Shown: piece after piece, positions 2,156-54,950 of the stretch
Layout: every line of letters starts with the position of its first letter
Numbering within the stretch: position 1 is the first letter of the stretch
Source of the DNA: an uncultured Hyphomicrobiales bacterium
GTDB lineage: Bacteria; Bacteroidota; Ignavibacteria; Kapaibacteriales; UBA2268
Direction of reading: 5' to 3'
Assembly: GCA_964464375.1 (NCBI GenBank)
Contig: CAYXFU010000016.1
Location: 15,074 to 79,073, forward strand
Length of the DNA: 64,000 nt
Program-made: the position numbers and the translations under genes
Notes under the pieces: model-generated
What the model was told of the DNA's origin: nothing
Seen by the model: only the letters and a program-made list of their open reading frames with translations
The model's database searches: none

Positions 2156-2239
2156 TTATATCTTTATAAACTTCCCTACTTTATCCCCAATTCGGACAAT
2201 ATACATGCCCGGAGCAAAGCCGGAAACATCAGGAATTTT
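2156..2239 (-). pseudogene. Orphan 28-codon 3' fragment of a T9SS C-terminal domain (..KIPDVSGFAPGMYIVRIGDKVGKFIKI*), no upstream gene body; overlaps the antitoxin stop in another frame
   Basis: reverse-strand translation matches the conserved CTD ending GMYFVRIGDKVGKF(V/I)K(L/I) of four full-length genes in this window. Confidence 0.6.
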
Positions 2240-2858: not shown

Positions 2859-4763
2859 TTATTTAATTTTCACAAATTTCCCGACTTTATCTCCAATCCG
2901 CACAAAATACATCCCAGTAGTTAGAGAAGTGACATTGATTTGTAGGGGTTCAAAATTTTGAACCCCTACAGTCATTACAGTTTGACCGAATACATTGAAG
3001 ATACAGATACCCTCAGATGGACTCCACTTGGCAAGTGGAGCCCATCTTCTCATATCGATTTCTACGAAATCTGATGCTGGATTGGGTGAAAGAATAAAAG
3101 ACTCTGCACTTTTGATATCCGATACATCTGTGATTAAATGAATAGATAATCTGGCTCTTTGAGGTGTCTTACATTCAGTTGTTAAACTTTGTGCTTCAAT
3201 ATAAACAACTGTATCTTTATAAACATATAATGAGAAATAATTTCTTGCTGACTGAAGCAGATTACCACCAACAGGTGAATCATACAGATAAAATGTTGAA
3301 TTTTTGGGAGACAAAGGTATTATTGAAATGTCCTGTTTTTTAATAAGCACAGTATCATTTACTAATACAGGTATTCCAGGATACACTTTAATAGATGTTT
3401 GATTTTCTTCCCCGATTGAAACAGGGTCGGTACTCCTAACTCTGATTTTGTAACTCTCACCTTCTGTAACATCTGAAGGTATTCCTACCTTAATTTTGCC
3501 TTGATAAATACTTTTGCTTTTACCTATAATTTTGACATTTGATGACCATGAACCGTTTGTGTCTGACAATTCTGCAATAAATTCATTTCCTGTTTTATAT
3601 AGTATATAAGTTTTGAAAGCCAGATCAAAGCTATCTCCAGGGCAAAATTGAAGTTTCATTGGCTTGGGGTCATCTGTATTAATTGTTAGCTTTTTGTTCC
3701 TGTAATAAATAATATAAAATTCTTTTATTGTTGTATCACTAATTACAAATTGATGTCTTGAAGGCTGGATTTGTGCTATTTCCCTCATGTCTGATTTGAA
3801 TTTGGAATTTGAATCAAGACTTTCATATAATAAAAATGTTGAATTTTGTGGGAAATTAATATCTTCATATTCTAATTTCAGTGGATAATCTGTTGCCTTA
3901 GAAAAGAACTTTACATGATAAATAAGAGGTGTAGATTCGTTTTTAAATTCTCTGATATCTCTAGAATTTGAATATGGTTTCTCGTCATTAGGGGCAATAT
4001 CGTATATTCCGTATTCTAAAGTATATGGAAGACTATCTATATAAAACCTGGCTTGAAAATTACGCATAATATAGTCAAAAGGACCTTCAGCATAACATGT
4101 ATCAGCATTCATACTTGCTCTGTAATGTGATCCAAATATCAGATTTGTTGTATCTATATTTTTTGAAACTAAAAATAACTCAATACCGGGTTTTGAAGTT
4201 GAATCAAACCATTCATAAGGATTATAGAAAATCCAAATCGGTACATCAACATTGACATAACCGCTGTCATTTAATTCTTTTGCAGTAAATAATAAATTTG
4301 CTGTATAATAGCCGGGTTTCATTGTTTTTGGAGGGATAAATTTCAAATCCAAATCTAAATAATTACCTTTTGTTAGGTTGAAAACATTACCACTAGTTAC
4401 ATAATTTGGAAAGGGATTCTGCTTTCCGGCTCCGGCAACTGATTTGAATACCAAGTATGGCTGATCGGAGCTAATCAGCATTGATTCGATCTTGGATGTA
4501 TCAGTTTTCAAGCTGATATTCATTATGCCGGAATGGGTATTACCTGTTCCTGAATCGGATGAAAATGGATTCCTGATTGAATAAGAATAAAGAGAGTTCT
4601 TCATTGTCGTTGGCAACCAACCAGTTTTTCTGTCAATGTTAAACATTAATTCTGCATTTGATGAGATTTTAGCCGAATTGTTATCCATTGCAGTAATAGA
4701 TTGAGCTGATGTGAGAGCATATCCCAGTAGGGTGACAATAACTATTAAGTATTTCATCTTCAT
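2859..4763 (-). CDS. Secreted protein with T9SS C-terminal sorting domain
   Basis: signal peptide; C-terminus SPNPASDFVEIDMRRWAPLAKWSPSEGICIFNVFGQ..GMYFVRIGDKVGKFVKIK. Confidence 0.6.
   Translation of the reverse strand: MKMKYLIVIVTLLGYALTSAQSITAMDNNSAKISSNAELMFNIDRKTGWLPTTMKNSLYSYSIRNPFSSDSGTGNTHSGIMNISLKTDTSKIESMLISSDQPYLVFKSVAGAGKQNPFPNYVTSGNVFNLTKGNYLDLDLKFIPPKTMKPGYYTANLLFTAKELNDSGYVNVDVPIWIFYNPYEWFDSTSKPGIELFLVSKNIDTTNLIFGSHYRASMNADTCYAEGPFDYIMRNFQARFYIDSLPYTLEYGIYDIAPNDEKPYSNSRDIREFKNESTPLIYHVKFFSKATDYPLKLEYEDINFPQNSTFLLYESLDSNSKFKSDMREIAQIQPSRHQFVISDTTIKEFYIIYYRNKKLTINTDDPKPMKLQFCPGDSFDLAFKTYILYKTGNEFIAELSDTNGSWSSNVKIIGKSKSIYQGKIKVGIPSDVTEGESYKIRVRSTDPVSIGEENQTSIKVYPGIPVLVNDTVLIKKQDISIIPLSPKNSTFYLYDSPVGGNLLQSARNYFSLYVYKDTVVYIEAQSLTTECKTPQRARLSIHLITDVSDIKSAESFILSPNPASDFVEIDMRRWAPLAKWSPSEGICIFNVFGQTVMTVGVQNFEPLQINVTSLTTGMYFVRIGDKVGKFVKIK
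3019..3043. repeat. In-frame 25-nt palindrome ggactccacttggcaagtggagccc inside the CTD coding region (encodes WAPLAKWSP); identical copy at 53907..53931
   Basis: palindrome seen directly; same sequence at the same CTD position in a second gene. Confidence 0.7.
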
Positions 4764-4774
4764 TTTATCCCATT

Positions 4775-5563
4775 TTACAATTTTATAAATTTCCCAACTT
4801 TATCCCCAATTCTCACAAAATACATCCCCGGAGGCAAACTGGAGATATCGATTCTTACTCCCTCCCTGCTCGCGGGGAGGGTTGGGGTGGGGTTAGGTGT
4901 GGCCTGTATTTCTCCCAGCACATTATATATACTCACGTCGCTTTGTAGGGGCGAACGGCCGTTCGCCCCTACGGATATTTCTATGAAATCTGTAGTTGGA
5001 TTAGGCGATACTTCAAAATCTTCTTTATTTTCTGGATTTTTTGATGGAACGTCCAAATTAGTATCCTCGTATCTTCTTAGATAATTGAAATTTGTAACAA
5101 GGCTTACATGTCCTATCTTATTTTCAACTGAATCTATGTTAGAATAATTCATCAGTCTTAGAAGCAAAACTCGTGGTAAAAATTTGGTGGTATCGGGTTC
5201 TTGAGGTAAATACTCCCTAAACCAAAATGTTCCATAAAGCGATTCAAAATGCTGAAATTCATTTTTTGTATTTAAATAGGTTGTAAGAATATCATGCCAT
5301 GTATATTCTATTATTGTGTCTTTTGGATAAATTCCAGATCTAGGAATAACATTATACTGAAATTCAACTCGAAAAATTTGTTTGGCATATAATTGTCCAA
5401 ATGTCGGTGACCAGTAACAGCTATCAACTTTGACCGAATCGGGATTTTGAAATCCCATCTTTTGATGCTTAAGTAGTTTTAGGCAACTGTCTGGTACTTG
5501 TGCATAATTTGCACCCAAACCAATAAAACTAAAATAAAGAAACATAAAGAATAATCTTTTCAT
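4775..5563 (-). CDS. Secreted protein with T9SS C-terminal sorting domain
   Basis: signal peptide MKRLFFMFLYFSFIGLGANYAQ; C-terminus SPNPTTDFIEISVGANGRSPLQSDVSIYNVLGEI..GMYFVRIGDKVGKFIKL. Confidence 0.6.
   Translation of the reverse strand: MKRLFFMFLYFSFIGLGANYAQVPDSCLKLLKHQKMGFQNPDSVKVDSCYWSPTFGQLYAKQIFRVEFQYNVIPRSGIYPKDTIIEYTWHDILTTYLNTKNEFQHFESLYGTFWFREYLPQEPDTTKFLPRVLLLRLMNYSNIDSVENKIGHVSLVTNFNYLRRYEDTNLDVPSKNPENKEDFEVSPNPTTDFIEISVGANGRSPLQSDVSIYNVLGEIQATPNPTPTLPASREGVRIDISSLPPGMYFVRIGDKVGKFIKL
4858..4881. repeat. In-frame GC hairpin ccctccctgctcgcggggaggg at a second variable site of the CTD (between NVLGEI and IDISSL)
   Basis: inverted repeat seen directly; the analogous site in the 53712 gene and the 52735 fragment carries a different hairpin, cctctcctttccaaggagggg. 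Confidence 0.55.
4945..4972. repeat. Perfect 28-nt palindrome gtaggggcgaacggccgttcgcccctac, in-frame in the CTD (encodes VGANGRSPL); related copies at 23153..23180 and 52927..52954
   Basis: perfect palindrome seen directly; recurs in orphan CTD copies. Confidence 0.75.
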
Positions 5564-7897: not shown

Positions 7898-10800
7898 TCA
7901 CTCAGTGATTGCTTCAGTGAAGATATCCTTGGATGGAACTGTAAAATAGAAGCTGGTGCCTTTGCCCAATCTTGATTCAACCCGGATTTTTCCATGGTGT
8001 TTATCAACAAATTCCTTGCATAGAACAAGTCCAAGACCTGTGCCTGGTTCACCTTTTGTTCCGATAGATATTATTTTTTCGTCTATCTTGAAGAGTTTCC
8101 GTCGTATCTCATCAGTCATGCCAATGCCATCGTCTTTGATGCAGATTTCCACCATATCATTATCGAGAACTACAGAAGTGATGTCAATATGCCCGCCTTC
8201 ATTGGTGAACTTCAGTGCATTCGAAACAAAATTGCGGACGATTGTGTTTATCATATTGAGGTCAGCAAAGATAAAAATATTCTCGTCAGAGTTATTTAAT
8301 AATTCTATTTTTTTGGTTGAGGCATTCGACATCAGAATATCCATCGGAATATCTATAGCATCCCGTAAGGAGAGATTTTCGGGATTGAACGGGATAGCAC
8401 CATTCTGAATCCTTGACCATTCAAGAAGATTATTGAGCAGGCGATTCAATCTGTTGGCATTAATATTCAGCTCCGACAGGAATTCACTTAACTCTGTAAA
8501 GCTAAGGTTATAGACTTCCTTTGTCATCATTTCTGTTAACATCAGGAACGAAGACAATGGACTTCTAAGGTCGTGGGCAATAATTGAAAAGAATCTATCC
8601 TTGCTTGCATTGAGCTCCTTCAGCTGAGTTGAAGATTCCGACAGTGAAAGATTGAGTTCCTGAACCACTTTCGCTTCTTCTTCTATTTTGTCATGTGAAA
8701 TCTGAAGCTCATCGATCAGCTTTATTTTCTCATTCTCATGGATTTTATCTATTGTAACGTCCTGTATAAAGCCCATTAATTTGTTTGCTTTGTTATTCTC
8801 ATCGAACAGGACTTCATTGGAAGTGATAACGTAGCGGACAGAACCATCAACCCGGATAATTCTATGTTCAAATTCAAACATTCCTGAACCTGAAATTGAG
8901 TCTTCAATTCTGCTAGTATATTCTTCAAGATCATCGGGATGAATAAACTTCTTCATAATTTCGTTTGAAGGCTCTATCTCGCCAACCATCAAGCCGTAAA
9001 TTCTATAAATCTCATCGGACCAGTAAGATTCACCAGATTTGAGATTTACCTCCCAGCTTCCCAGATGAGCAAGTTTTTCTGAGTAAAGGAGGCGCTTTTC
9101 ATTATTCTTCAGAATTTCCTCAAACCGTTTTGCTTCAGTTACATCATGTCCAATTGCTTCATAGGTACGCACATACTTGCTTTCATCTCTCACCGGAATA
9201 AAAGTGAATTCCATCAATTTGTGCTGACCTTTTCTCGTTATCCATGTCAGAAGCTGGTTTTTGACGATTTTTTTTCCGCTCTTCAGCATTTCGATTATAT
9301 TTATGCTGGTTTCTATCGAATCCGGATGAAGAATTTTGAAGGATAGACTCGAATCTTCCTGGAATTCCGATAGTCTGTATCCGAGTAATTGCTCAGCGGC
9401 AGGGTTCAGAAATATAATCTGACCAGTATCAGCTTCCGCTCTGTATATAGCTTCACCTGCGTTGAGTGTTAATCGCTCATAAGTATCACTCAATTCTCTT
9501 AGCTTGTTCTTTAATTTCTTGCTTTCGGTTCTGTCTATTATTGTTATCAGTCCATGCGGAGTATTGTTCTTTGTGAAAGGAACAATAATATAATCCAGCC
9601 AGATTTCGCGACCGTCGTAGCTTTCTGATAGAATCTCGCCGTAAGCTTTTTTGTCGGTTTCCATAACAAACTTAAATTCATCGTAGATAGTCGATGTGAG
9701 GCAGATTATACTTTCCTTGAGAGTCAGTTTCTGCATTTTGTCGAGCTCTATACCAAGTATCTTGCAAAAAGAGGTGTTTACAAATACGCAATCACCATTA
9801 CAGTTGTAAGCCGCTTTACCCAAAGGAGATGCTTCAATAATTTTGATGTTAAGATCGAGTTCATCCTGGATTTTCTTCTCAAGAATTTTTCTTTCGGTGA
9901 TATCTCGTGCAATACCTGTCGTACCAAGAACATTCCCATCGTTATCGATAATTGGTGCATTATGAATTTCAATCCAGCTGTCTTCACCGTTTATCTCTAA
10001 ATGTTCTTCTGTACTTATCTTTTTTCCCTGCGTCATAACTTCGATGTCGTTCTGAAGATGCCGGTAAGCCAAATCATCAGGGAAGACATCGTGATCGTTT
10101 TTCCCGATTAATTTATCGGGATCCTTTTCGGGACTAAGCTCAGCAAGAGTCTTATTCACGAGAAGATACTTTCCTTCTTCGTCCTTAAACCAGGAATAAA
10201 ATGGTAGGTTATCAAAGATTGCCCGAAAATGTGCTTCTTTAACCCTCAGATCATTTTCCGTTTTAAGTCTCTCTGATATATTTCTTGAAATACTGAGAAT
10301 CACTTCTCTGCCATTGAGTTCGATAATACTGCTCTTAGCTTCAACCGGAATAATCTCGCCGGATTTATTCACATGGAATGAATCGAACACAATCACGCGA
10401 TTCTCAATGAGCTGAGCTAATTTCTGCGGACGAATCTCCTGAATATGCTGTGGCATAAAGTCATAGAGAGTTGAGCTTGTCAGGACTTCATAACTGCATC
10501 CAAAATGCTGAGTGGCGGCATAGTTAGCCTCGATTATTCTGCCATCGAATTCGTGAATCAGCACGGGATCGAGCAGGTTGTCCAGAATTGCCTTGAAGTA
10601 GTTTCGTGCAGAACGCAGTTCTTTTTCTATATTAATAAGTTTAGTGATGTTACGGCAAACAATAATTGTAGCTTTATAAGTTCCATTTTCGTCAAGATCG
10701 GGTGTGGCTGCAATAGATAGAATCCTACTTTCACCGTTTGGGCGGATAATTTGCAATTGGTAATTACTGCTTTCGCCACGTTTACGCTTTTCAGTTTCTT

Positions 10801-11090: not shown

Positions 11091-11155
11091 GTCATTCCTG
11101 CACATGCAGGAATCTCGTAAAGTTAGAGAGATTCCGGGACAAGCCCGGAATGACA
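11091..11155. repeat. 65-nt hairpin repeat bounded by GTCATTC...GAATGAC (attcctgcacatgcaggaat + ttccgggacaagcccggaa)
   Basis: inverted termini and internal palindromes; member of a dispersed repeat superfamily. Confidence 0.6.
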
Positions 11156-21397: not shown

Positions 21398-22933
21398 ATG
21401 AAGCAGAACGCTTTAAAATCCGCCGGATTTATTGCATTGGGCAGTATAGCATTGGTGATGCTTGTGCTTAGCCTAAGTCCGAGTTTTATGACAAAAGTAT
21501 TTGCAGAAGACATAGGGGCGAAACAACCTCCAGTCAAGATGAATGAACATGTACGAGCTTTGAATAATGCTTTTGAAGAAGTAAGCAAGGCAGTCGTGCC
21601 TTCAGTCGTGAGCATTAGTGTGGTCATTGAAAACAAGGGAATGAAAAACCAGATGCACGATGAATTCAGAGACTTTTTCAAATTCTTTGGACAGCCCAAT
21701 CCCGATGATAACCAGCAGGAAAATCAGGCTCCACAGGAAAGTGAAGCTAGCGGTTCAGGTGTTATTGTTACAGAGAACGGTTATATTGTAACTAATTATC
21801 ATGTTATTGAAAACGCAAAAGAGATTAAGGTTACAACCAATGATAAAAAAGAACACAAGGCAAAGTTAATAGGAACCGATCCATTGACAGATCTTGCTGT
21901 TATTAAGATAGAAGGCAGCGGTTTCCCGATGGCATATATAGGCAATATCGAAGATGTGAAGATCGGCGAATGGGTGCTGGCAGTTGGCAATCCATTAGGA
22001 TTAAATTCAACTGTGACAGCCGGCATAGTAAGCGCAATAGGCAGAGGCGGATTATCTATATTAAGAGACAGAGGACCTTCGGCTGTGGAGAATTTCATTC
22101 AGACTGATGCTGCTATCAATCCAGGAAACAGCGGTGGTGGTTTGTTCAATCTTGAAGGATCGCTAGTTGGTATCAATACAGCTATTGCAACTAGAACCGG
22201 TTCATATATCGGTTATGGTTTTGCTATTCCGATTGACTTAGTTAAATCCGTCATAACGGACCTTATTCAGAACGGTAAAATCAGCCGCGGACAAATTGGT
22301 GTTATGATACGCAGTGTGGACGAACTTATGGCTAAATCACTCGGATTGAATGATGTCGCAGGAGTTCTTGTAAATGATGTCATCAAGAACAGTGCCGCAG
22401 ACAAAGCCGGAATCGAATCCGGTGACGTTATACTTGAGCTTGACGGAAAAACTCTTTCTACATCGAATGAATTACAGAGTATTGTTGCAAAAAAGAAAGC
22501 CGGCGATAACGTAAACATGGTAATCTGGAGAGACGGTAAGAAAATCAATAAACAAGTTAAGTTGCAACCAAGAGAAACGAAGGATGATATTGCATCTAAA
22601 GAGGCTTCAAAGGGCGATGATGAAGACATGACAGATAATGCTAACTCTCTGAACTTCGATAAGCTTGGGTTCACTGTGAAACCTCTGACAGCAGACGATA
22701 AGGATAATTATGATGTACAGAATGGTGTAATCATTTCGAAAGTTGACAGAAATGGTGAAGCAATTAAAAGAGGCATAGTACCTAATGGTATTATTATTAA
22801 AGCAGACAGAACAAAGATAACATCAATGAAAGAGTTGAAAAAGGTTCTTTCGGAGAAGAAATCGGGCGATGCTGTAATGCTCCAAATAAAGTACAAAGAC
22901 TCAAATAGAATTGTGGCATTGGAAATTCCATAA
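21398..22933 (+). CDS. htrA: Periplasmic serine endoprotease, Do/HtrA family, with two PDZ domains
   Basis: catalytic H..D..GNSGGGLFN serine motif; two PDZ-like C-terminal domains. Confidence 0.85.
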   Translation: MKQNALKSAGFIALGSIALVMLVLSLSPSFMTKVFAEDIGAKQPPVKMNEHVRALNNAFEEVSKAVVPSVVSISVVIENKGMKNQMHDEFRDFFKFFGQPNPDDNQQENQAPQESEASGSGVIVTENGYIVTNYHVIENAKEIKVTTNDKKEHKAKLIGTDPLTDLAVIKIEGSGFPMAYIGNIEDVKIGEWVLAVGNPLGLNSTVTAGIVSAIGRGGLSILRDRGPSAVENFIQTDAAINPGNSGGGLFNLEGSLVGINTAIATRTGSYIGYGFAIPIDLVKSVITDLIQNGKISRGQIGVMIRSVDELMAKSLGLNDVAGVLVNDVIKNSAADKAGIESGDVILELDGKTLSTSNELQSIVAKKKAGDNVNMVIWRDGKKINKQVKLQPRETKDDIASKEASKGDDEDMTDNANSLNFDKLGFTVKPLTADDKDNYDVQNGVIISKVDRNGEAIKRGIVPNGIIIKADRTKITSMKELKKVLSEKKSGDAVMLQIKYKDSNRIVALEIP

Positions 22934-22968
22934 GCAAGGTTCTAAGCAAAGATAAGAAAAAGATTTCA

Positions 22969-22999
22969 GATGTCCAACACCTTGAAGGTGTTGGACATC
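22969..22999. terminator. Hairpin gatgtccaacacc..ggtgttggacatc downstream of htrA
   Basis: 13-bp perfect stem; weak T-tract. Confidence 0.45.
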
Positions 23000-23008
23000 T
23001 TATCTACT

Positions 23009-23190
23009 CTAAAGCTTCACAAACTTCCCGACTCTCTCCCCAATCCTCAAAAAATACATACCCGGAGCTAAGCCTGAAACATCGACTCGTTTGGGCAATT
23101 CATGAATTGCCCCTACAGACAATACAGTTTGACCATAAACATTGATTATTTTGTAAGGGCGAACGGCCGTTCGCCCCTACGAAAATTTGT
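23009..23190 (-). pseudogene. Decayed tandem copy of the CTD 3' end of the adjacent 23361..24602 gene (..VGANGRSPLQ, frameshift, NVYGQTVLSVGAIHELPKRVDVSGLAPGMYFLRIGERVGKFVKL*)
   Basis: two-frame translation; no start codon or gene body; contains palindrome 23153..23180. Confidence 0.6.
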
Positions 23191-23264
23191 TTAGATTTAT
23201 TTTCCGTTTTCTACACACAGGTCGCTACTCCGTAGCTGAATACAAAGTACATCTATTGAACGTT

Positions 23265-23288
23265 GTCATACCTGCGTATGCAGGTATC
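23265..23288. repeat. Small hairpin of the repeat superfamily (gtcatacctgcgtatgcaggtatc)
   Basis: palindrome with GTCAT terminus. Confidence 0.45.
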
Positions 23289-23360
23289 TTTTTCCTTTGT
23301 TTGAATTGTATTCATCATGCCTTTAATCCCATAAATCCCATAAATCCCAGTTCAGACAAT

Positions 23361-24602
23361 TTATAACTTCACGAATTTACCGACTCGATCCCCAATCCTC
23401 ACAAAATACATCCCCGGAGCTAAACCGGAAATGTCTATCCGTAGGGGTAATTCATGAATTTCCCCAACAGACAATACAGTTTGACCATAAACATTGAAGA
23501 TTTTGAATTCGCTTTGTTCGGACACGGCACGCCGTGTCCCTACGGATATTTCAATGAAATCGGATGCGGGATTGGGAGAAATAGAAAAATTAAAGTCGTT
23601 AATTGTTTCTTGAATACCAGTTATACTTTTTAAACTGATTAGACTTATATATTCAGAATTACTTATAACTAAATAATTGCTATCTGATGTAAACTTAGCA
23701 TATAAAGCTCTTAGACTTGTTGATGCGATAACAGTACCATCATTAATATCCCATATTAAAATAGGATCTAAACTCCAAAATACACCTGCAACAATAAATC
23801 TATTATTAGGTGATACAGATAATGAATATACTGCGCTACTTGTTTTGATATTTCTTAATAGAGACCTGCTCTTTGTATCACATACATTAACTCCACTTGT
23901 ATTGTTATATTTAAAATAATCGCAAACAAATTTAGAGCCGTCATTATTAAATGTAGCATAATATGATGAACCCTCGTCTTTAATTACGATGGAATCAGTT
24001 TGTAGATCGGTTAATGAGGCAGGAGTAAATCTTGTTGCTACGGCTAAATATCTATCATCTTTAGAAAATTCGATAAAATTGGGTTGTTGTCTTTCCATCC
24101 ATTCACCTATCAAGCATGGATATTGTTTATAGATTTCATCAGTTTGGAAATTTCTTATAATTACGCCTTTCTCCATTAAAGAATAAGCTAAATACTTATT
24201 ATCATGGGAGAGCGCAGCATAAAATGATCCACTAGATAAATTAACCTTTATTTCTTTAACTAAAACCCATGTTTTCGTATCCCAAACAGTTAATTTACCA
24301 TAGTTTCCATCATCAGAACCAGTAGCAATGAGAAATGAACCGTCATAAGAATATTTTACAGCAAATAATGTATAATCACAGACTTTTATTTGCTTGAATA
24401 TAGTTCCAGTTAAAAGATTAACAATTCTTATTGTTCCATCTTTTCCGCTTAATGAAATAAATTTATTGTCTGGTGAGACGTCGAAATAAGAAGAAATACC
24501 AAATTCATTTCTCCAAACCACACTAGAGTCAAGTGATATTTGGCTCTTTACATTTGCAATAAAGAAGATGAAGAAGAGTAGAATAAGAATGAATTGTTTC
24601 AT
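23361..24602 (-). CDS. WD40/beta-propeller-like secreted protein with T9SS CTD
   Basis: signal peptide; C-terminus SPNPASDFIEISVGTRRAVSEQ..GMYFVRIGDRVGKFVKL; in-frame palindrome ggacacggcacgccgtgtcc at 23516..23535. Confidence 0.6.
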   Translation of the reverse strand: MKQFILILLFFIFFIANVKSQISLDSSVVWRNEFGISSYFDVSPDNKFISLSGKDGTIRIVNLLTGTIFKQIKVCDYTLFAVKYSYDGSFLIATGSDDGNYGKLTVWDTKTWVLVKEIKVNLSSGSFYAALSHDNKYLAYSLMEKGVIIRNFQTDEIYKQYPCLIGEWMERQQPNFIEFSKDDRYLAVATRFTPASLTDLQTDSIVIKDEGSSYYATFNNDGSKFVCDYFKYNNTSGVNVCDTKSRSLLRNIKTSSAVYSLSVSPNNRFIVAGVFWSLDPILIWDINDGTVIASTSLRALYAKFTSDSNYLVISNSEYISLISLKSITGIQETINDFNFSISPNPASDFIEISVGTRRAVSEQSEFKIFNVYGQTVLSVGEIHELPLRIDISGLAPGMYFVRIGDRVGKFVKL

Positions 24603-26306: not shown

Positions 26307-26609
26307 TTAAACCTCGTAATCGCAGGAATGTGTTACTTCGCGCACCTTGTTAAGGAATTCGACGACAGCAACATGAGCCGGATGCTTAGTATATAAATCC
26401 AGATCTTCCCAATTGTCATAATCAGCGAGAATCGAAAGATCATAAGCTCTCGGTGAATCGAGCTGATTGATTCCCACTTCGAAGCTTTTGATTGTTTCGA
26501 TTTGTGCAGGTAAAGCTCTTAGCATTGTTGCGACAAGCTGCACATTCTCGGCTTTTGATCTGCCGTCAGCTTCATCGTAGAATTTTATCATTATTATGTG
26601 TCTTATCAT
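26307..26609 (-). CDS. Dabb-family stress-responsive A/B-barrel protein
   Basis: ~100 aa; MIRHIIMIKF..HPAHVAVVEF pattern. Confidence 0.55.
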   Translation of the reverse strand: MIRHIIMIKFYDEADGRSKAENVQLVATMLRALPAQIETIKSFEVGINQLDSPRAYDLSILADYDNWEDLDLYTKHPAHVAVVEFLNKVREVTHSCDYEV

Positions 26610-26648
26610 GATATATCTTGATATATTTATTAATAGTAAAATTCATTC

Positions 26649-26790
26649 GTCATTCAGAGCGCAGCGAAGAATCCATGTATTTGTATTTTCTTGTAAAAAC
26701 AGCCTGGATTCTTCAGTCGCAGTGCCCCTTCTGAAGGACAGCGATTCCGTCATTCTGAACGAAGTGAAGAATCCATGTATTCATACTATT
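26649..26790. repeat. Composite of two family-A hairpin units; first 64 nt repeated directly at 27189..27252
   Basis: gtcattcagagcgcagcgaagaatccatgtatttgtattttcttgtaaaaacagcctggattct. Confidence 0.65.
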
Positions 26791-26828
26791 GCTAGATTCT
26801 TAGTACCGATTCCTCAAAAAGACAGCCA

Positions 26829-27116
26829 CTAATACCACTCTTCACTTAAATCATTCCAATTAGGATTATTACCTTCAATCAATTTAATTTTTTTTACTCT
26901 TGAATATCCTTTAATATGCTTTTCTCTGACAATAGCAGATTCAATATTTCCACAGTCTTCAAGGAATACTAGTTGATGAACAGAATATTTGGAAGTAAAA
27001 CCTTCAAATAAATTATTTTTATGTTCATAGACTCTTTTTAATAAATTAGATGTTACACCTGTGTAAAGTGTTCCATTTTTTTGCGAAGCCATAATATATA
27101 CAAACCCGTTTTTCAT
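26829..27116 (-). CDS. GIY-YIG nuclease-superfamily small protein
   Basis: GFVYIMASQKNGTLYTGVTSNLLKRVYEH (GIY..YIG motif), 95 aa. Confidence 0.7.
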   Translation of the reverse strand: MKNGFVYIMASQKNGTLYTGVTSNLLKRVYEHKNNLFEGFTSKYSVHQLVFLEDCGNIESAIVREKHIKGYSRVKKIKLIEGNNPNWNDLSEEWY

Positions 27117-35660: not shown

Positions 35661-36209
35661 ATGGGAACAGCACTACTAATAATAGATATTCAAAACGACT
35701 ACTTCGATGGTGGAGCTAACCCTCTTGTCGATTCTGAAAAAGCGTGCATCAATGCGCGTTTGATTCTCGATGCTTTCCGTGAGGATGGAATGCCGGTAAT
35801 CTTCGTACAACATATATCTAATCGACCAGACTCAACATTCTTTCTGCCATGCACTTTTGGTGCTGAGATCCATCGCGTTTTAACTCCAATTGGTAATGAA
35901 ATGGTAATCACCAAGAATTATCCAAACAGCTTCAAGAATACAGATCTGCTTGAATATCTGAGAGCAAACGAAATACATAACCTGATAATCTGCGGTATGA
36001 TGACTCACTTATGCATAGACTCAACCGTAAGAGCCGCTAAAGATCTTGGGTTTAACTGCACTCTGATCGGTGATGCCTGCGCTACAAAGAATCTGGAGAT
36101 TAATGGACAGTTGGTCATTGCAGAAGTAATACAGAACAGCTTCCTTGCTGCACTTAACGGATTTTATGCAACAGTGATCAAAACTGAAGAATATTTGGGT
36201 GGAGAGTAA
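35661..36209 (+). CDS. Isochorismatase-family hydrolase (second paralog); start moved to M at 35661
   Basis: MGTALLIIDIQNDYF..IICGMMTHLCIDSTV; the 35595 extension would translate through a repeat arm. Confidence 0.65.
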   Translation: MGTALLIIDIQNDYFDGGANPLVDSEKACINARLILDAFREDGMPVIFVQHISNRPDSTFFLPCTFGAEIHRVLTPIGNEMVITKNYPNSFKNTDLLEYLRANEIHNLIICGMMTHLCIDSTVRAAKDLGFNCTLIGDACATKNLEINGQLVIAEVIQNSFLAALNGFYATVIKTEEYLGGE

Positions 36210-36364
36210 AAGCAATGAACAATTTAGATAAATCTGAAATAATCAACACACTTGACTCAATCACAAACCGGTGGCTGGAGTTATCAGAAAAGTTGTGAAG
36301 TAGCTGATTACCGTCATAAGCGATAAATACATGCCAAGCACCAAAACCAACTCCGGCAATCAGA

Positions 36365-36410
36365 GAGTGAATTAATACATTGCAATTTGCGAAATGGGAG
36401 GGAATCATGG
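36365..36410 (+). repeat. Second copy of the 40-nt AATTAATACATTGCAATTTGCGAAAT motif
   Basis: identity to 2083..2125. Confidence 0.5.
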
Positions 36411-36516
36411 CATGAATACTATATTGCCACATTTTCTACAAATCCTTATGGGATTATTATAAAACTTCCGAGAAAACCCAAACCCCTTTGAAAAAGGGGG
36501 CTAATACATTCTTTGT

Positions 36517-36672
36517 AAATCAATGAATAGCCACGAGCTTTAGCTCGTGGTGAAAAGAAAAAATGATTTTATTTGGGGATTTATCCCCACAAAAAGAGTG
36601 ATTTCGACTAAAGTCAATGAAAATAATTAGGAATCTTCCACGAGCTAAAGCTCGTGGCTATTGATTCCATCA
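36517..36672. mobile_element. MITE-like element: ~33-nt terminal inverted repeats (each containing the palindrome ccacgagctttagctcgtgg) flanking a ~90-nt AT-rich core with hairpin ggggatttatcccc
   Basis: caatgaatagccacgagctttagctcgtgg at 36517.. and its reverse complement at 36640..36672; no ORF. Confidence 0.4.
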
Positions 36673-37017
36673 TATTTTATGAGAACGCACCAGCCCTTCT
36701 TGTTCCAAGGGGGATTAAGGGGGTTTCCGTTATTCATTTTTATATTCAAATATCGCTTTCATTAGCTTTTCACCGCTAATAGATATCTTAATCACTTCCA
36801 TGGAAGAATGAGGACGATGTAAACAGGTGCTTTTTTCATGATATTACCGATCTTAAATTTATATGAACAATTTAACATCAAAGAACTTGGTGGTGGCGAA
36901 TTCCTATCGCCACCACCATCTATCATCGCCAAACACTTTATTTGGATTCTGCTGTCAATTGTCTTCTTTTGAAATGCTAATCCGGAGTTTGCATAGCATA
37001 TTCTTGCCATATTCAAT

Positions 37018-37665
37018 CTACATCTTCGCCAGATCTGCCAATTTCATTGATTTTGCGAGTGATTTAGCGAAATCCGTATTTGACTGATTCTCAACTCTGA
37101 TTGTTAAAATGAATCTGTAGCCCACGGCAAATGTAAGTTCCGCAGTTTTGCTCGATTTAGTATATTTTTCGAATCCGGGGACTTCTTTGACACCAATGTC
37201 GATTGTTCTCTCATAACCATTGGCATCTTCTCTCGAAAAGTTTGTGCTCATCCAGAAGAAAGCGGCAGAAAAGAGATCTTGAGTGGCATTATAATCCACC
37301 AGCTTTATTTCGATGTCTTCGGCGGCTCCGGTTGCATTTTCTTTAACGTATCTTCTCGAAGATTCCGAATAGCTTAGTCCTGGCATGTTCATATTCTGTC
37401 CGGCTGGTTCTTCTGATTTATATCCGCTTATGGTAGGAGGCATGAATTCCTCAAGTTTTTTGAAAGGTAAGGACAGAGTATCACCTTTCTTTTTTCGTTC
37501 TTCCCAACGCGCTTTTGATTGTTCCTGTGCAGACTGCATATTCTTTGCCATTTCGGGAGCTTTTTGAGCTAGCTCGATAGCATCCTTAATTTCCTTGGCT
37601 TTTTCGCCACAGGACACAAGTATAAATGCAAATAAAGCGATAATGAGGGTAAGGAGTAGTTTCAT
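37018..37665 (-). CDS. Hypothetical lipoprotein
   Basis: signal peptide + lipobox LVSC; Lys/Glu-rich N-region. Confidence 0.45.
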   Translation of the reverse strand: MKLLLTLIIALFAFILVSCGEKAKEIKDAIELAQKAPEMAKNMQSAQEQSKARWEERKKKGDTLSLPFKKLEEFMPPTISGYKSEEPAGQNMNMPGLSYSESSRRYVKENATGAAEDIEIKLVDYNATQDLFSAAFFWMSTNFSREDANGYERTIDIGVKEVPGFEKYTKSSKTAELTFAVGYRFILTIRVENQSNTDFAKSLAKSMKLADLAKM

Positions 37666-52734: not shown

Positions 52735-52988
52735 TTACAGCTTTATAAACTTTCCGACTCTGTCCCCAGTCCTCACAAAATACATTCCAGGAGCCAAACC
52801 GGAGACATCGATTCTTGCTTTTTCCTCTCCTTTCCAAGGAGGGGTGTCACGATTGCGAAGCAACGGCGAAGCCCACTCCGGGGTGGTCTTGATTTCTCCA
52901 AGAACATTATATATCATCACCTCGCTTGTAAGGGCGAAGGACAGTTCGCCCCTACGGAAATTTCTATAAAATAAGAACTAGGATTGGG
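52735..52988 (-). pseudogene. Stand-alone frameshifted T9SS CTD cassette (..TPNPSSYFIEISVGANCPSPLQAR* then MMIYNVLGEIKTTPEWASPLL..GMYFVRTGDRVGKFIKL)
   Basis: two-frame translation gives a complete ~80-aa CTD with no gene body; ~150 nt near-identical to the 3' end of the 53712 gene; palindrome at 52927..52954. Confidence 0.6.
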
Positions 52989-52996
52989 AGTGACAA

Positions 52997-53308
52997 TTAA
53001 TTAATATCAATTCCGGTTCTCAGAATTTCCTGAATAAAAGGATCCCCTTTATAAAAATATTCAGTTGGGAATGTTTGTGCATCAATATCGAGATAGTTTT
53101 TTGTTATAGGTGCTATCATTAGAGCATTTTCGAATCTGTCACTCGTGAATTGACTTGAAACTAATGCCAGATCGATGTCTGTATTATCATTGTTTATATC
53201 TTTGGCAAGAGAACCAAAAAGAATTACCCGATCGAAAACCAAGTTGATTTTTCGGCATTCATCGATAAACTCCTTTGTTATATCTATTGCATTTTGTCTA
53301 GTAAGCAT
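52997..53308 (-). CDS. Nucleotidyltransferase (MNT antitoxin)
   Basis: ILFGSLAKDINNDNTDIDLALV. Confidence 0.7.
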   Translation of the reverse strand: MLTRQNAIDITKEFIDECRKINLVFDRVILFGSLAKDINNDNTDIDLALVSSQFTSDRFENALMIAPITKNYLDIDAQTFPTEYFYKGDPFIQEILRTGIDIN

Positions 53309-53676
53309 TTTCTGATTTCACCAGCTTTTTGAATTAATTCTTTTGTTTTTTCTGTGGTTGTTGTTTTGTAAATATTGCCCAAATAGTCGGGATATCGACC
53401 TTCCAGATTATAGACGTTGAATGCCTTTAGAAAAACAATCATATCGTCATCAAATTCAATATTAGTAAAAGATAAAAGTTTCACAATATCATGCGTTTTG
53501 GGAGGATAAATTTCATCAGTAAATCGTACATATATTGCTTTACTGATTTTTTCCATTGTCAAATGAACAAAAAATAATGCTTGTACAAATTTCCCGCCAT
53601 CCAATAATAAGGTTACTGATTCCCAGTCGCTTTGAGCAGAATCAATCCAATACGCAATATGTTCCTGTTTTGTCAT
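53284..53676 (-). CDS. HEPN-domain protein (toxin partner of MNT)
   Basis: size and helical pattern; 25-nt overlap with the NTase gene. Confidence 0.6.
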   Translation of the reverse strand: MTKQEHIAYWIDSAQSDWESVTLLLDGGKFVQALFFVHLTMEKISKAIYVRFTDEIYPPKTHDIVKLLSFTNIEFDDDMIVFLKAFNVYNLEGRYPDYLGNIYKTTTTEKTKELIQKAGEIRKCLLDKMQ

Positions 53677-53711: not shown

Positions 53712-54950
53712 TCAATATTTTATAAACTTCCAGATCTTATCCCCAATCCTCACGAAATACATACCCGGAGCCAAACCGGAGACATCGATTCTTGCTTTTT
53801 CCTCTCCTTTCCAAGGAGGGGTGTCACGATTGCGAAGCAACGGCGAAGCCCACTGCGGGGTGGTCTTGATTTCTCCAAGAACATTAAAGATTCTTATCTC
53901 AACAGATGGACTCCACTTGGCAAGTGGAGCCCATCTTGCCAAGTCGATTTCTATAAAGTCCGTGGCGGGATTAGGGAAAATATAATTATCTTTAACATTA
54001 ATATTATCATCAAATCCAGATTGTAGTGGTGAAGTTGCAACAACCAGATTATCGATCCACATAGTCTGTTCAATGGGAGAGCCATCGCCAATATAGGGAG
54101 CAATCAGGAACTGATTGAGCTTCATATCGGGGAATTGTGCTGTTCTGAATATAATATTATCATAACTTATCAAAATCTTGGAATCGTACCAGTATCTGAT
54201 CTTCCCGTCAGTAACTCCTTTACCGCCTTGAATACTATTCAGCTTAAAATATGCTTCCACATGATGCCAGTCATTCTTGTAGTTGAGTCCCTGTGCGTCT
54301 GTGAAATAAACTGTGTCGGCATCCCATATTCTTGCACTATAATAGTATCCACCGCCATAGTTGAAGCAATCGCTTCTATCGAAACCACCCTCGATACCAT
54401 TGCATGCGGCTATGGAACGATTCTCGGAGAACTTATAGCTATTAAAATCTCCATCGCAGCCGATAAAATTACCGTTGTTCTGCAAGATACACGTCTGATC
54501 TACATTCTTGCTGTCCTGAAGTGCAAGCAGGGGCTTACCCTCATTCTGTTCGATATATAAAGTTAGATGAGTGATTGCCGGACCGACATATTTATCATCA
54601 GCATTTGTCATAATATTAAATTCATGAGGATGATACGGCTTGTTCGAGCCTTCCCAGTTTGCACTATACTTCACCCAATAGCTTACGTAGAGTTCATCTG
54701 TTTCGGTGAACAGATGACGGCTGGGGGTCCCTGCGGCGCATCCTCTCTGCCCCTGCAGGAATTTACACTCGAAGCAGGCAGTACTCCCATTGATATGCTC
54801 AGCCGTTGAAATTGTCCCTTTAGACGCATCGTACCACCCACGCAAAGCAAAGTCATTATCATCAAAATTCTCAATAAAGAGAATGGTTTGAGCTAATAGA
54901 GCTACAAAACCAAAAGTGCTTATAAACAATATGATGAATAATGTTCTCAT
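53712..54950 (-). CDS. Secreted protein with T9SS CTD carrying two in-frame hairpins (WAPLAKWSP palindrome 53907..53931; cctctcctttccaaggagggg 53801..53821)
   Basis: signal peptide; C-terminus FPNPATDFIEIDLARWAPLAKWSPS..NVLGEIKTTPQWASPLLRNRDTPPWKGEEKARIDVSGLAPGMYFVRIGDKIWKFIKY. Confidence 0.55.
   Translation of the reverse strand: MRTLFIILFISTFGFVALLAQTILFIENFDDNDFALRGWYDASKGTISTAEHINGSTACFECKFLQGQRGCAAGTPSRHLFTETDELYVSYWVKYSANWEGSNKPYHPHEFNIMTNADDKYVGPAITHLTLYIEQNEGKPLLALQDSKNVDQTCILQNNGNFIGCDGDFNSYKFSENRSIAACNGIEGGFDRSDCFNYGGGYYYSARIWDADTVYFTDAQGLNYKNDWHHVEAYFKLNSIQGGKGVTDGKIRYWYDSKILISYDNIIFRTAQFPDMKLNQFLIAPYIGDGSPIEQTMWIDNLVVATSPLQSGFDDNINVKDNYIFPNPATDFIEIDLARWAPLAKWSPSVEIRIFNVLGEIKTTPQWASPLLRNRDTPPWKGEEKARIDVSGLAPGMYFVRIGDKIWKFIKY

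Follow-up and report, generated by a model that had tools for sequence, protein, structure and literature searches.

Organization of the locus

The DNA analysed here is a 64-kb stretch of contig CAYXFU010000016.1 (37% G+C; hereafter the window), and the element in question is a short, isolated piece of the C-terminal sorting domain (CTD) of cargo proteins of the type IX secretion system (T9SS), hereafter the orphan tail. The orphan tail (23009..23143, minus strand) lies between two genes. On one side is the gene for a DegP/HtrA-type serine protease (21398..22933, plus strand), which is convergent with it and was used as the anchor for comparison of this site among relatives. A hairpin terminator (22968..23000), common to DegP and probably to a CTD gene that formerly ended there, is followed by a T-run on the minus strand. 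On the other side is the neighbour gene (23361..24602, minus strand), encoding a 413-aa protein with a WD40-like beta-propeller and a complete CTD (23364-23594), the latter scoring above the cut-offs of both PF18962 (45.5 bits; cut-off 27) and TIGR04183 (32.9 bits; cut-off 23).

The orphan tail is composed of 44 sense codons (23012-23143) and a TAG stop (23009-23011), and its minus-strand translation is NVYGQTVLSVGAIHELPKRVDVSGLAPGMYFLRIGERVGKFVKL. Based on the coverage of the domain profiles, positions 24-69 of 75 in PF18962 (26.1 bits; cut-off 27) and positions 23-70 of 72 in TIGR04183 (23.6 bits; cut-off 23), with both scores close to the curated cut-offs, the orphan tail represents a type A sorting domain of the T9SS without its first third. 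Within the window, tblastn aligned it with the end of the neighbour open reading frame (ORF) at 83% identity over 48 residues (E=1e-24); 38 of its 44 residues agree with the neighbour tail, and the DNA identity is 83.9% over 137 nt.

Upstream of the coding-like stretch, the linker is reduced to 9 nt (23144..23152, minus strand) as compared with 20 nt in intact CTDs, and directly upstream of this shortened linker is a GC-rich palindrome, gtaAgggcgaacggccgttcgcccctac (23153..23180), of the type translated as VGANGRSPLQ. Due to the 11-nt linker deletion, the palindrome is read out of frame, and the TAG within its gTAGggg closes the orphan frame. Neither a start codon nor a gene body was detected for the orphan tail, the list of ORFs of at least 40 aa being empty at 23009..23143, and the sequence further upstream (23185-23360) contains stops in all frames and shows no similarity to any gene body. 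The element is thus homologous to a part of a functional gene, disrupted in frame and startless, as is characteristic of a gene remnant. A working CTD is located at the C-terminus of a cargo body with an N-terminal signal peptide; the neighbour gene product has this arrangement and the orphan tail does not. These observations agree with the initial annotation, in which the element was described as the decayed, bodiless 3' end of a CTD gene with a frameshift. The same annotation had it repeat about 50 codons of the neighbour gene; the match is real, but its length is 44 codons, the remainder of 23009..23190 being linker and palindrome.

Where the residues of the family are conserved, the orphan tail has K, L and E substitutions not shared by other CTDs. 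Contig L001, an independent Joint Genome Institute (JGI) metagenome assembly, reproduces the same 700 nt of the locus with two single-nucleotide polymorphisms (SNPs), both inside the orphan tail, and one of them alters the Gly of the YGQ motif, which is kept in every CTD of the homolog comparison. Two SNPs are too few for a test, and they give only a hint of a loss of constraint. At present the orphan tail is probably just a part of the 3' untranslated region of the neighbour gene, upstream of the shared terminator; by inference, the neighbour transcript would run through the relic to the old terminator.

An artefact of assembly, that is, a collapsed or mis-joined repeat, is practically negligible as an explanation of the locus. 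CTD tails do break short-read assemblies, and several contigs end in CTD tails. The neighbour gene was, however, found on four contigs from different samples, the two inspected both having DegP 428 nt downstream, and L001 shows the same locus apart from the two orphan SNPs. Long-read assemblies showing an artefact had been named in the initial annotation as a refutation of the copy; the repetition of the locus in L001 speaks against such an artefact.

The CTD family and its palindrome slots

The coding tail of the CTDs is a dispersed repeat of roughly 230 nt, with palindromes in two loops. CTDs of this family (family A) contain in-frame GC-rich palindromes in two loop slots, many of which are framed by GTAGGG…CCCTAC. 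Slot 1 follows …DFIEIS, and its variants include VGANGRSPLQ, VGTRRAVSEQ, RRWAPLAKWSPS and VGAGSKPALT. Slot 2 follows …GQTVLS, and its variants include VGAIHELPLR, VGVQNFEPLR, RAGLEPAPT, NPTPTLPASREG and TPPWKGEEK. Among about 45 homologs (P0001-P0087), the contents of the two slots are combined freely; VGANGRSPLQ, for instance, occurs together with IHELP, VQNFEPL, RAGLEPAPT or NPTPTLPASREG.

In the window, the CTD palindromes are located at 2941-2970, 3015-3047, 4945-4972, 23441-23468, 23513-23546 and 53904-53936, and the genic GC-rich palindromes are nearly all within CTDs. The orphan slot-1 palindrome (23153-23180) differs by one mismatch from a perfect copy, GTAGGGGCGAACGGCCGTTCGCCCCTAC, at 4945-4972, for which zero matches are expected by chance. 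The equivalent palindrome of the neighbour gene is of another type, ggacacggcRYgccgtgtcc (23520-23539; core ggacacggcacgccgtgtcc). At slot 2, the orphan tail carries gggcaattcatgaattgcccctac (23093..23116), translated as VGAIHELP, and the neighbour palindrome of the same slot and type is located at 23441-23468.

About 10 ORFs in the window carry CTDs, which would imply a working T9SS. No transposase, recombinase or integrase was identified among the larger ORFs of the window (at least 150 aa). As to the literature, nothing specific was found on recombination of CTDs or on palindromes in T9SS tails.

Three short-read contigs (L014, L015 and L028) end inside CTD tails or the terminator hairpin. 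The 44-aa orphan peptide matched four small ORFs in protein databases, and two of them, P0089 and P0090, were at first taken as further orphans; both proved to be truncations at contig ends. Such contig-end 'mini-ORFs' can be mistaken for orphan tails in protein databases, and broken or wrongly joined contigs within CTDs are a hazard of which annotators and binning pipelines should be aware.

The spacer between the orphan tail and the neighbour gene

The spacer (23181..23360, minus strand) is the 3' flank of the neighbour gene and consists of a patchwork of small dispersed elements. A hairpin, atacctgcgtatgcaggtat (23268-23287), and a micro-tandem of a 9-nt unit, cccataaatcccataaatccca (23328-23349), are both present as initially annotated. 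A piece of 46-55 nt including the micro-tandem (23306-23359) recurs in L016 and L017, and a stem-loop motif (23206-23243) has copies shortly after the CTD stops in two unrelated contigs, L015 (184-221) and L014 (204-222). Given the recurrence of these two pieces elsewhere, the spacer looks like ordinary 3'-flank material of CTD genes in this lineage. No second copy of the spacer sequence (23185-23360; 176 nt) exists in the window, and nothing upstream of the neighbour CTD resembles it.

The motif at 23206-23243 is conserved as gtattcaGCTACnnaGTAGCgacctgtNtgtagaaaac, with a 5-bp stem-loop, and a second, covarying copy exists in L015 (GCTCCgtaGGAGC); no Rfam match was obtained for gtattcaGCTACnnaGTAGCgacctgtNtgtagaaaac. 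Searches of the locus and of the whole window against Rfam gave no matches, nor did a tRNA scan. The spacer hairpin belongs to a hairpin family, gtcatWcctgYRYatRcaggWatc, with members at 11091-11116, 11128-11155 and 23265-23290 of the window and at 9611-9634 of L002, a contig from a relative; its translation is VIPAYAGI-like in either direction. In L002, the DegP terminator and the CTD stop are separated by an insertion of 39 nt, which contains the member at 9611-9634. This insertion is missing from the window, and for this reason the hairpin family appears to behave as a small mobile insertion.

Relationship between the orphan tail and the neighbour gene

The initial annotation regarded the neighbour gene as the parent of the orphan tail. 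For evaluation of this relationship, the 44 orphan residues were compared with the CTD tails of proteins found in a homolog search with the neighbour protein. At the protein level the neighbour has nominally the highest score (38/44), but unrelated CTDs are nearly as close, P0018 and P0006 agreeing at 37 of 44 positions and four others at 36 of 44. These unrelated proteins have Kelch, BNR, esterase and other bodies, and are encoded at other loci and in other genomes. For the last 78 nt of the orphan tail, the highest identity among the sequences available is with an unrelated CTD in L014 (88.5%), as compared with 79.5% for the neighbour. The sequence past the orphan stop is unlike that past the neighbour stop.

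A tandem duplication of the last ~50 codons of the neighbour gene, after which the copy decayed and its palindrome was converted to another type, is improbable in view of these comparisons. It would account for the nominally best protein match, for the direct orientation of the two copies at a distance of about 350 nt, and for a run of 31 identical nucleotides after the linker, in which all seven informative sites agree with the neighbour. A duplication should, however, have repeated the 3' flank as well, which is not the case, and the spacer is no copy of other sequence. Some unrelated CTDs match about as well as the neighbour or better, and in its palindrome, last codons, stop codon and downstream flank the orphan tail agrees with L002 and not with the neighbour. 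Taking together the similar scores of unrelated CTDs, the unduplicated spacer and the different post-stop sequences, the resemblance between the orphan tail and the neighbour gene is at the family level, with no parent-copy relation shown. It may be explained by shared membership of a dispersed CTD family, the copies of which are about 80-90% identical in DNA, to which a later conversion tract may have been added.

The 31-nt run lies right after the linker and between both slots (p≈0.03 by permutation), and hints at a later local gene conversion with the neighbour. From the difference in palindrome types, gtaAgggcgaacggccgttcgcccctac in the orphan tail and ggacacggcRYgccgtgtcc in the neighbour, it had already been concluded that simple tandem duplication does not apply and that exchange among CTD copies is involved. 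Both this difference and this conclusion hold. The accompanying idea of gene conversion has gained moderate support from the 31-nt run and from a 119/120-nt tract at another orphan locus (see below), while the assignment of the neighbour as the parent is abandoned.

The tail of the neighbour gene is itself exchangeable between orthologs. P0002, its 76% ortholog (L013 8001-9281), has the same body with an unrelated, palindrome-free CTD, and the switch occurs exactly at …LISLKSIT. The genomic context of P0002 also differs, including a resolvase and an MmeI-type restriction-modification system. The difference between P0002 and the neighbour represents whole-CTD swapping between orthologs.

The same site in relatives

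Relatives were sought by metagenome and genome scans on DegP. Two close ones were obtained, L002 and L009, and the members of the DegP cluster gave three more contexts. Judged by its relatives, the window derives from an uncultured bacterium of the Ignavibacteria. L002, a contig from a related Ignavibacteria metagenome-assembled genome (MAG), encodes a DegP with 97% aa identity (87% nt) to that in the window. A single blastn block begins upstream of DegP, covers DegP and the terminator, and continues into a CTD as far as window position 23188, the outer edge of the slot-1 palindrome. The CTD at this position in L002 is the end of an intact 702-aa BNR/Sortilin-like gene. In both the orphan tail and the L002 tail, slot 1 is of the VGANGRSPLQ type, slot 2 is of the IHELP type and the last 13 nt are GTGAAGCTTTAGA; they are also the only two of the 13 distinct CTD ends collected that use a TAG stop. 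On the upstream side of the palindrome, no similarity to the L002 gene could be detected in the window, and the spacer compared with the body of the 702-aa gene scored at the shuffle mean. Since the similarity to L002 ends at its outer edge, the slot-1 palindrome is the putative breakpoint of a rearrangement, placed to within about 20 nt. The imperfect arm cccTTAC was also considered as a marker of shared ancestry with L002, and was dropped after it was found in the third orphan tail and in L016.

The terminator pairing is preserved through two compensatory double changes among the window, L002 (9568-9604) and L009 (1521-1558), and the T-run on the minus strand makes the terminator suitable for a minus-strand gene ending there. 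A 92% copy of this hairpin is located beside an unrelated Tricorn protease gene in L016 (7946-7984). Because a near-copy adjoins an unrelated gene, the terminator hairpin may itself be a dispersed element.

Downstream of DegP, five relatives have five different neighbours. L009 carries gcvT; L019 has a same-strand PKD gene and L020 a TldD-like gene. No CTD was found at this site in the three contexts from the DegP cluster members, and contig L028 ends inside the terminator. As the contexts differ among relatives, the site is a rearrangement hot spot.

Origin of the orphan tail

Based on these comparisons, we consider the fragment to be a decaying, non-functional relic of a different T9SS cargo gene, which once ended at the DegP-convergent terminator; the probability of this interpretation is put at roughly 0.62. 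The feature is then ordinary in kind, a gene remnant, within an unusual sequence family. Several lines of evidence lead to this interpretation, to which the two orphan SNPs of L001 add a hint of relaxed constraint. The in-frame TAG, the 11-nt deletion, the lack of start and body and the partial profile coverage mark a remnant; L002 has an intact gene at the same position with shared slot types, end and TAG; the neighbour is not specially close and the DegP-downstream site is unstable; CTD swaps and palindrome junctions recur, as in P0002, in L002 versus L016 at slot 2 and in the tract of the third orphan tail; and the terminator T-run on the minus strand fits a gene ending there.

The history of the locus can be proposed as follows. 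A cargo gene on the minus strand would formerly have ended at the terminator convergent with DegP. A rearrangement, either deletion or replacement of the gene body, may then have broken the DNA at the GC-rich palindrome of the first CTD loop, or no more than about 20 nt from it, whereby the body and the first CTD strand of the old gene would have been lost or replaced and the 3' flank of the present neighbour joined to the slot-1 palindrome. The remaining tail would afterwards have gained the 11-nt deletion and the private substitutions, possibly together with a short gene-conversion tract from the neighbour. What we infer from the present sequences is that the tail and the L002 gene end had a common ancestor, that the events took place in this order and that the palindrome caused the break.

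Several observations weigh against this interpretation. First, the orphan coding DNA agrees with the L002 tail at 78-80% identity, which is no better than its agreement with other CTDs, and the bases between stop and terminator cannot be aligned, L002 having the 39-nt hairpin-bearing insertion there; common ancestry therefore rests on the position, the palindrome types and the 13 terminal nucleotides. Second, in L009, the DegP of which is closer to that of the window (92% nt), gcvT lies directly past the same terminator and there is no CTD, so that parsimony is even between shared ancestry and two independent arrivals. Third, L002 is a single MAG contig, and in three JGI assemblies from the L002 species (L016-18; 98.7% nt) the 702-aa gene lies beside the Tricorn protease gene. 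No difference separates L002 (9651-9760) from L016 (6990-7109) before the slot-2 palindrome; between this palindrome and the stop the identity falls to about 85%, and beyond the stop the two are unrelated. L002 may accordingly be either a genuine slot-2 recombinant or a chimeric assembly within the CTD repeat, and in the latter case the lost gene need not be the 702-aa one. Fourth, CTD genes account for about 10 of the approximately 50 genes in the window, and chance co-location is not negligible. Either way, a CTD end abuts the DegP terminator in the L002 species, and it is the identity of the lost gene body that is less certain. Searched with the 702-aa gene, the window and the retrieved homologs gave CTD-level matches only, and a partial copy in L027 carries no information on the 3' end.

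Other orphan tails and toxin-antitoxin pairs

The 64-kb window holds three orphan tails in total, and at two of them a toxin-antitoxin pair abuts the orphan. The second orphan tail, DVSGFAPGMYIVRIGDKVGKFIKI followed by a stop (2159..2230, minus strand), consists of 24 codons and begins at the antitoxin stop. A HigB/RelE-like toxin gene (2513-2839) and a helix-turn-helix antitoxin gene (2229-2513) are inserted between a complete CTD gene (2859..4763) and this orphan tail. In L016, the 702-aa gene has a tail and 3' flank that agree with the second orphan tail and its flank at 82% identity. The third orphan (52735..52994, minus strand) is a nearly whole, frameshifted CTD downstream of a complete CTD gene (53712..54950), with a HEPN (53284-53676) and MNT (52997-53308) pair between the two; it is called as a 60-aa gene by annotation pipelines. 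The middle 120 nt of the third orphan and of the CTD of 53712..54950 are identical at 119 positions (p≈1e-4), whereas the identity is about 80% outside this tract and the slot-1 palindromes differ. The tract has the clear signature of a gene conversion tract. Exact look-ups of the HEPN and HigB-like proteins for other contexts gave only the same locus of the same species. The two further orphans with toxin-antitoxin pairs, together with the junctions at slots 1 and 2, suggest that CTD tails may be recurrent substrates or junctions of recombination.

These loci bear on an alternative origin of the tail at 23009..23143, in which it is the neighbour gene's own old tail, pushed downstream by an incoming CTD (slot-1 type VGTRRAVSEQ) together with its 3' flank. 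The crossover would have taken place in the conserved first CTD strand (…PNPASDFIEISVG), and the incoming CTD would have become the end of the gene. Such a displacement is unlikely, though far from negligible. The orphan tail lacks exactly the conserved first strand that a crossover would consume; P0002 keeps the body and has a wholly different CTD from the exact body/CTD boundary, which indicates that tails of the neighbour gene do swap; the stem-loop motif of the spacer is found elsewhere right after CTD stops (L015 and L014); and the other two loci show the order of complete CTD, inserted toxin-antitoxin pair and orphan tail. Against it, a different complete gene owns the tail at the DegP position in L002, none of the relatives found has a WD40-like gene that ends with a VGANGRSPLQ-type CTD or adjoins DegP, and the larger ORFs of the window include no recognizable recombinase, transposase or integrase.

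A function for the orphan tails as silent cassettes, kept as donors of conversion for diversification or repair of expressed CTDs, is highly improbable. The presence of three orphans in 64 kb, the free mixing of slot contents across the family and the conversion-like tracts connecting orphans with adjacent expressed CTDs are in its favour. The CTD of T9SS cargo is, however, removed by cleavage during secretion, and no benefit from its variation is obvious; the orphans have been altered by frameshifts, by deletions and by the replacement of conserved residues, and neither a dedicated recombinase nor an array organization is present.

On a broader scale, CTD tails with their two palindrome slots could act in this Ignavibacteria lineage as genome-wide recombination cassettes. 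Tail swapping between genes and the capture of small mobile cargo, toxin-antitoxin pairs for example, would then start from breaks at the palindromes, and a displaced orphan would remain after every event, 23009-23180 being one such footprint. This proposal is speculative and decidedly doubtful at this stage. If true, the system would be comparable to the tip displacement of Rhs and contact-dependent inhibition (CDI) loci, built on a secretion signal, and if extended genome-wide it would show how repertoires of secretion-tagged genes become reshuffled. As a relic of a lost cargo gene, the fragment alone is a pseudogene scar that changes little, and its value is as a data point in the wider pattern of CTD tails.

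Comparison with known systems

At Rhs and CdiA loci, a complete gene is followed by one or more 5'-truncated copies of its end, an arrangement explained by the downstream displacement of the old end when a conserved coding segment recombines. The arrangement here is analogous in that a gene is followed by a truncated end copy, with small gene pairs in between at the two other loci of the window. The conserved segment in our case, however, is an extreme C-terminal secretion tag instead of a core/tip junction, and the toxin-antitoxin pairs at the other loci are generic and located upstream of the orphan. The orphan tail at 23009..23143 is followed by the terminator and DegP, and no small ORF is present in the position of an immunity gene.

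The locus is also comparable to gene remnants left by ectopic or illegitimate recombination among dispersed repeats. As in such cases, a truncated, frameshifted and promoterless piece of a gene family is located between intact genes, the locus is variable among relatives, and the similarity to paralogs is at the family level. The difference is that the repeat involved here is a short protein-sorting domain and that the break coincides with a palindrome in its coding sequence. With the pilS and vls silent cassettes, the locus shares promoterless partial copies beside an expressed gene and mosaic conversion tracts; in contrast to them, the decayed copies here form no array and show no sign of programmed switching, and the mature protein lacks the domain concerned.

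Palindromes within coding sequences have been described for Rickettsia palindromic elements and for GTAG-headed repetitive extragenic palindromic (REP) elements (Di Nocera et al. 2013, PMC3733652). The slot palindromes resemble these elements in being short, GC-rich GTAG palindromes that are in frame and translated as loop insertions, with several types for each kind of site; the GTAG head and the GC-rich stem-loop of the published definition (PMC3733652) are present at 4945-4972 and 23153-23180. They differ in being concentrated in two loops of one domain family, instead of being distributed over many genes or intergenic regions. GTAG REP elements are dispersed and mostly extragenic, whereas the GTAGGGGCGAACGGCCGTTCGCCCCTAC type has two copies in 64 kb, both in CTD sequence, and another slot type, agatgg…ccatct, is without the GTAG head. 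No RAYT (Y1) transposase was detected among the window ORFs of at least 150 aa.

Other repeat-like features of the window

Three further features were noted elsewhere in the window. A small ORF of the GIY-YIG nuclease family (26829-27116; 95 aa) is flanked by repeat-like sequence (26600-26830). The intergenic region 36209-37018 contains an element resembling a miniature inverted-repeat transposable element (36440-36740), which has terminal inverted repeats, …aatcaatgaatagccacgagct… and …agctcgtggctattgatt…, and outer G-rich arms. The motif atttcgcaaattgcaatgtattaatt is repeated at 36375-36400, and is also present at 2100-2130, downstream of the second orphan tail.

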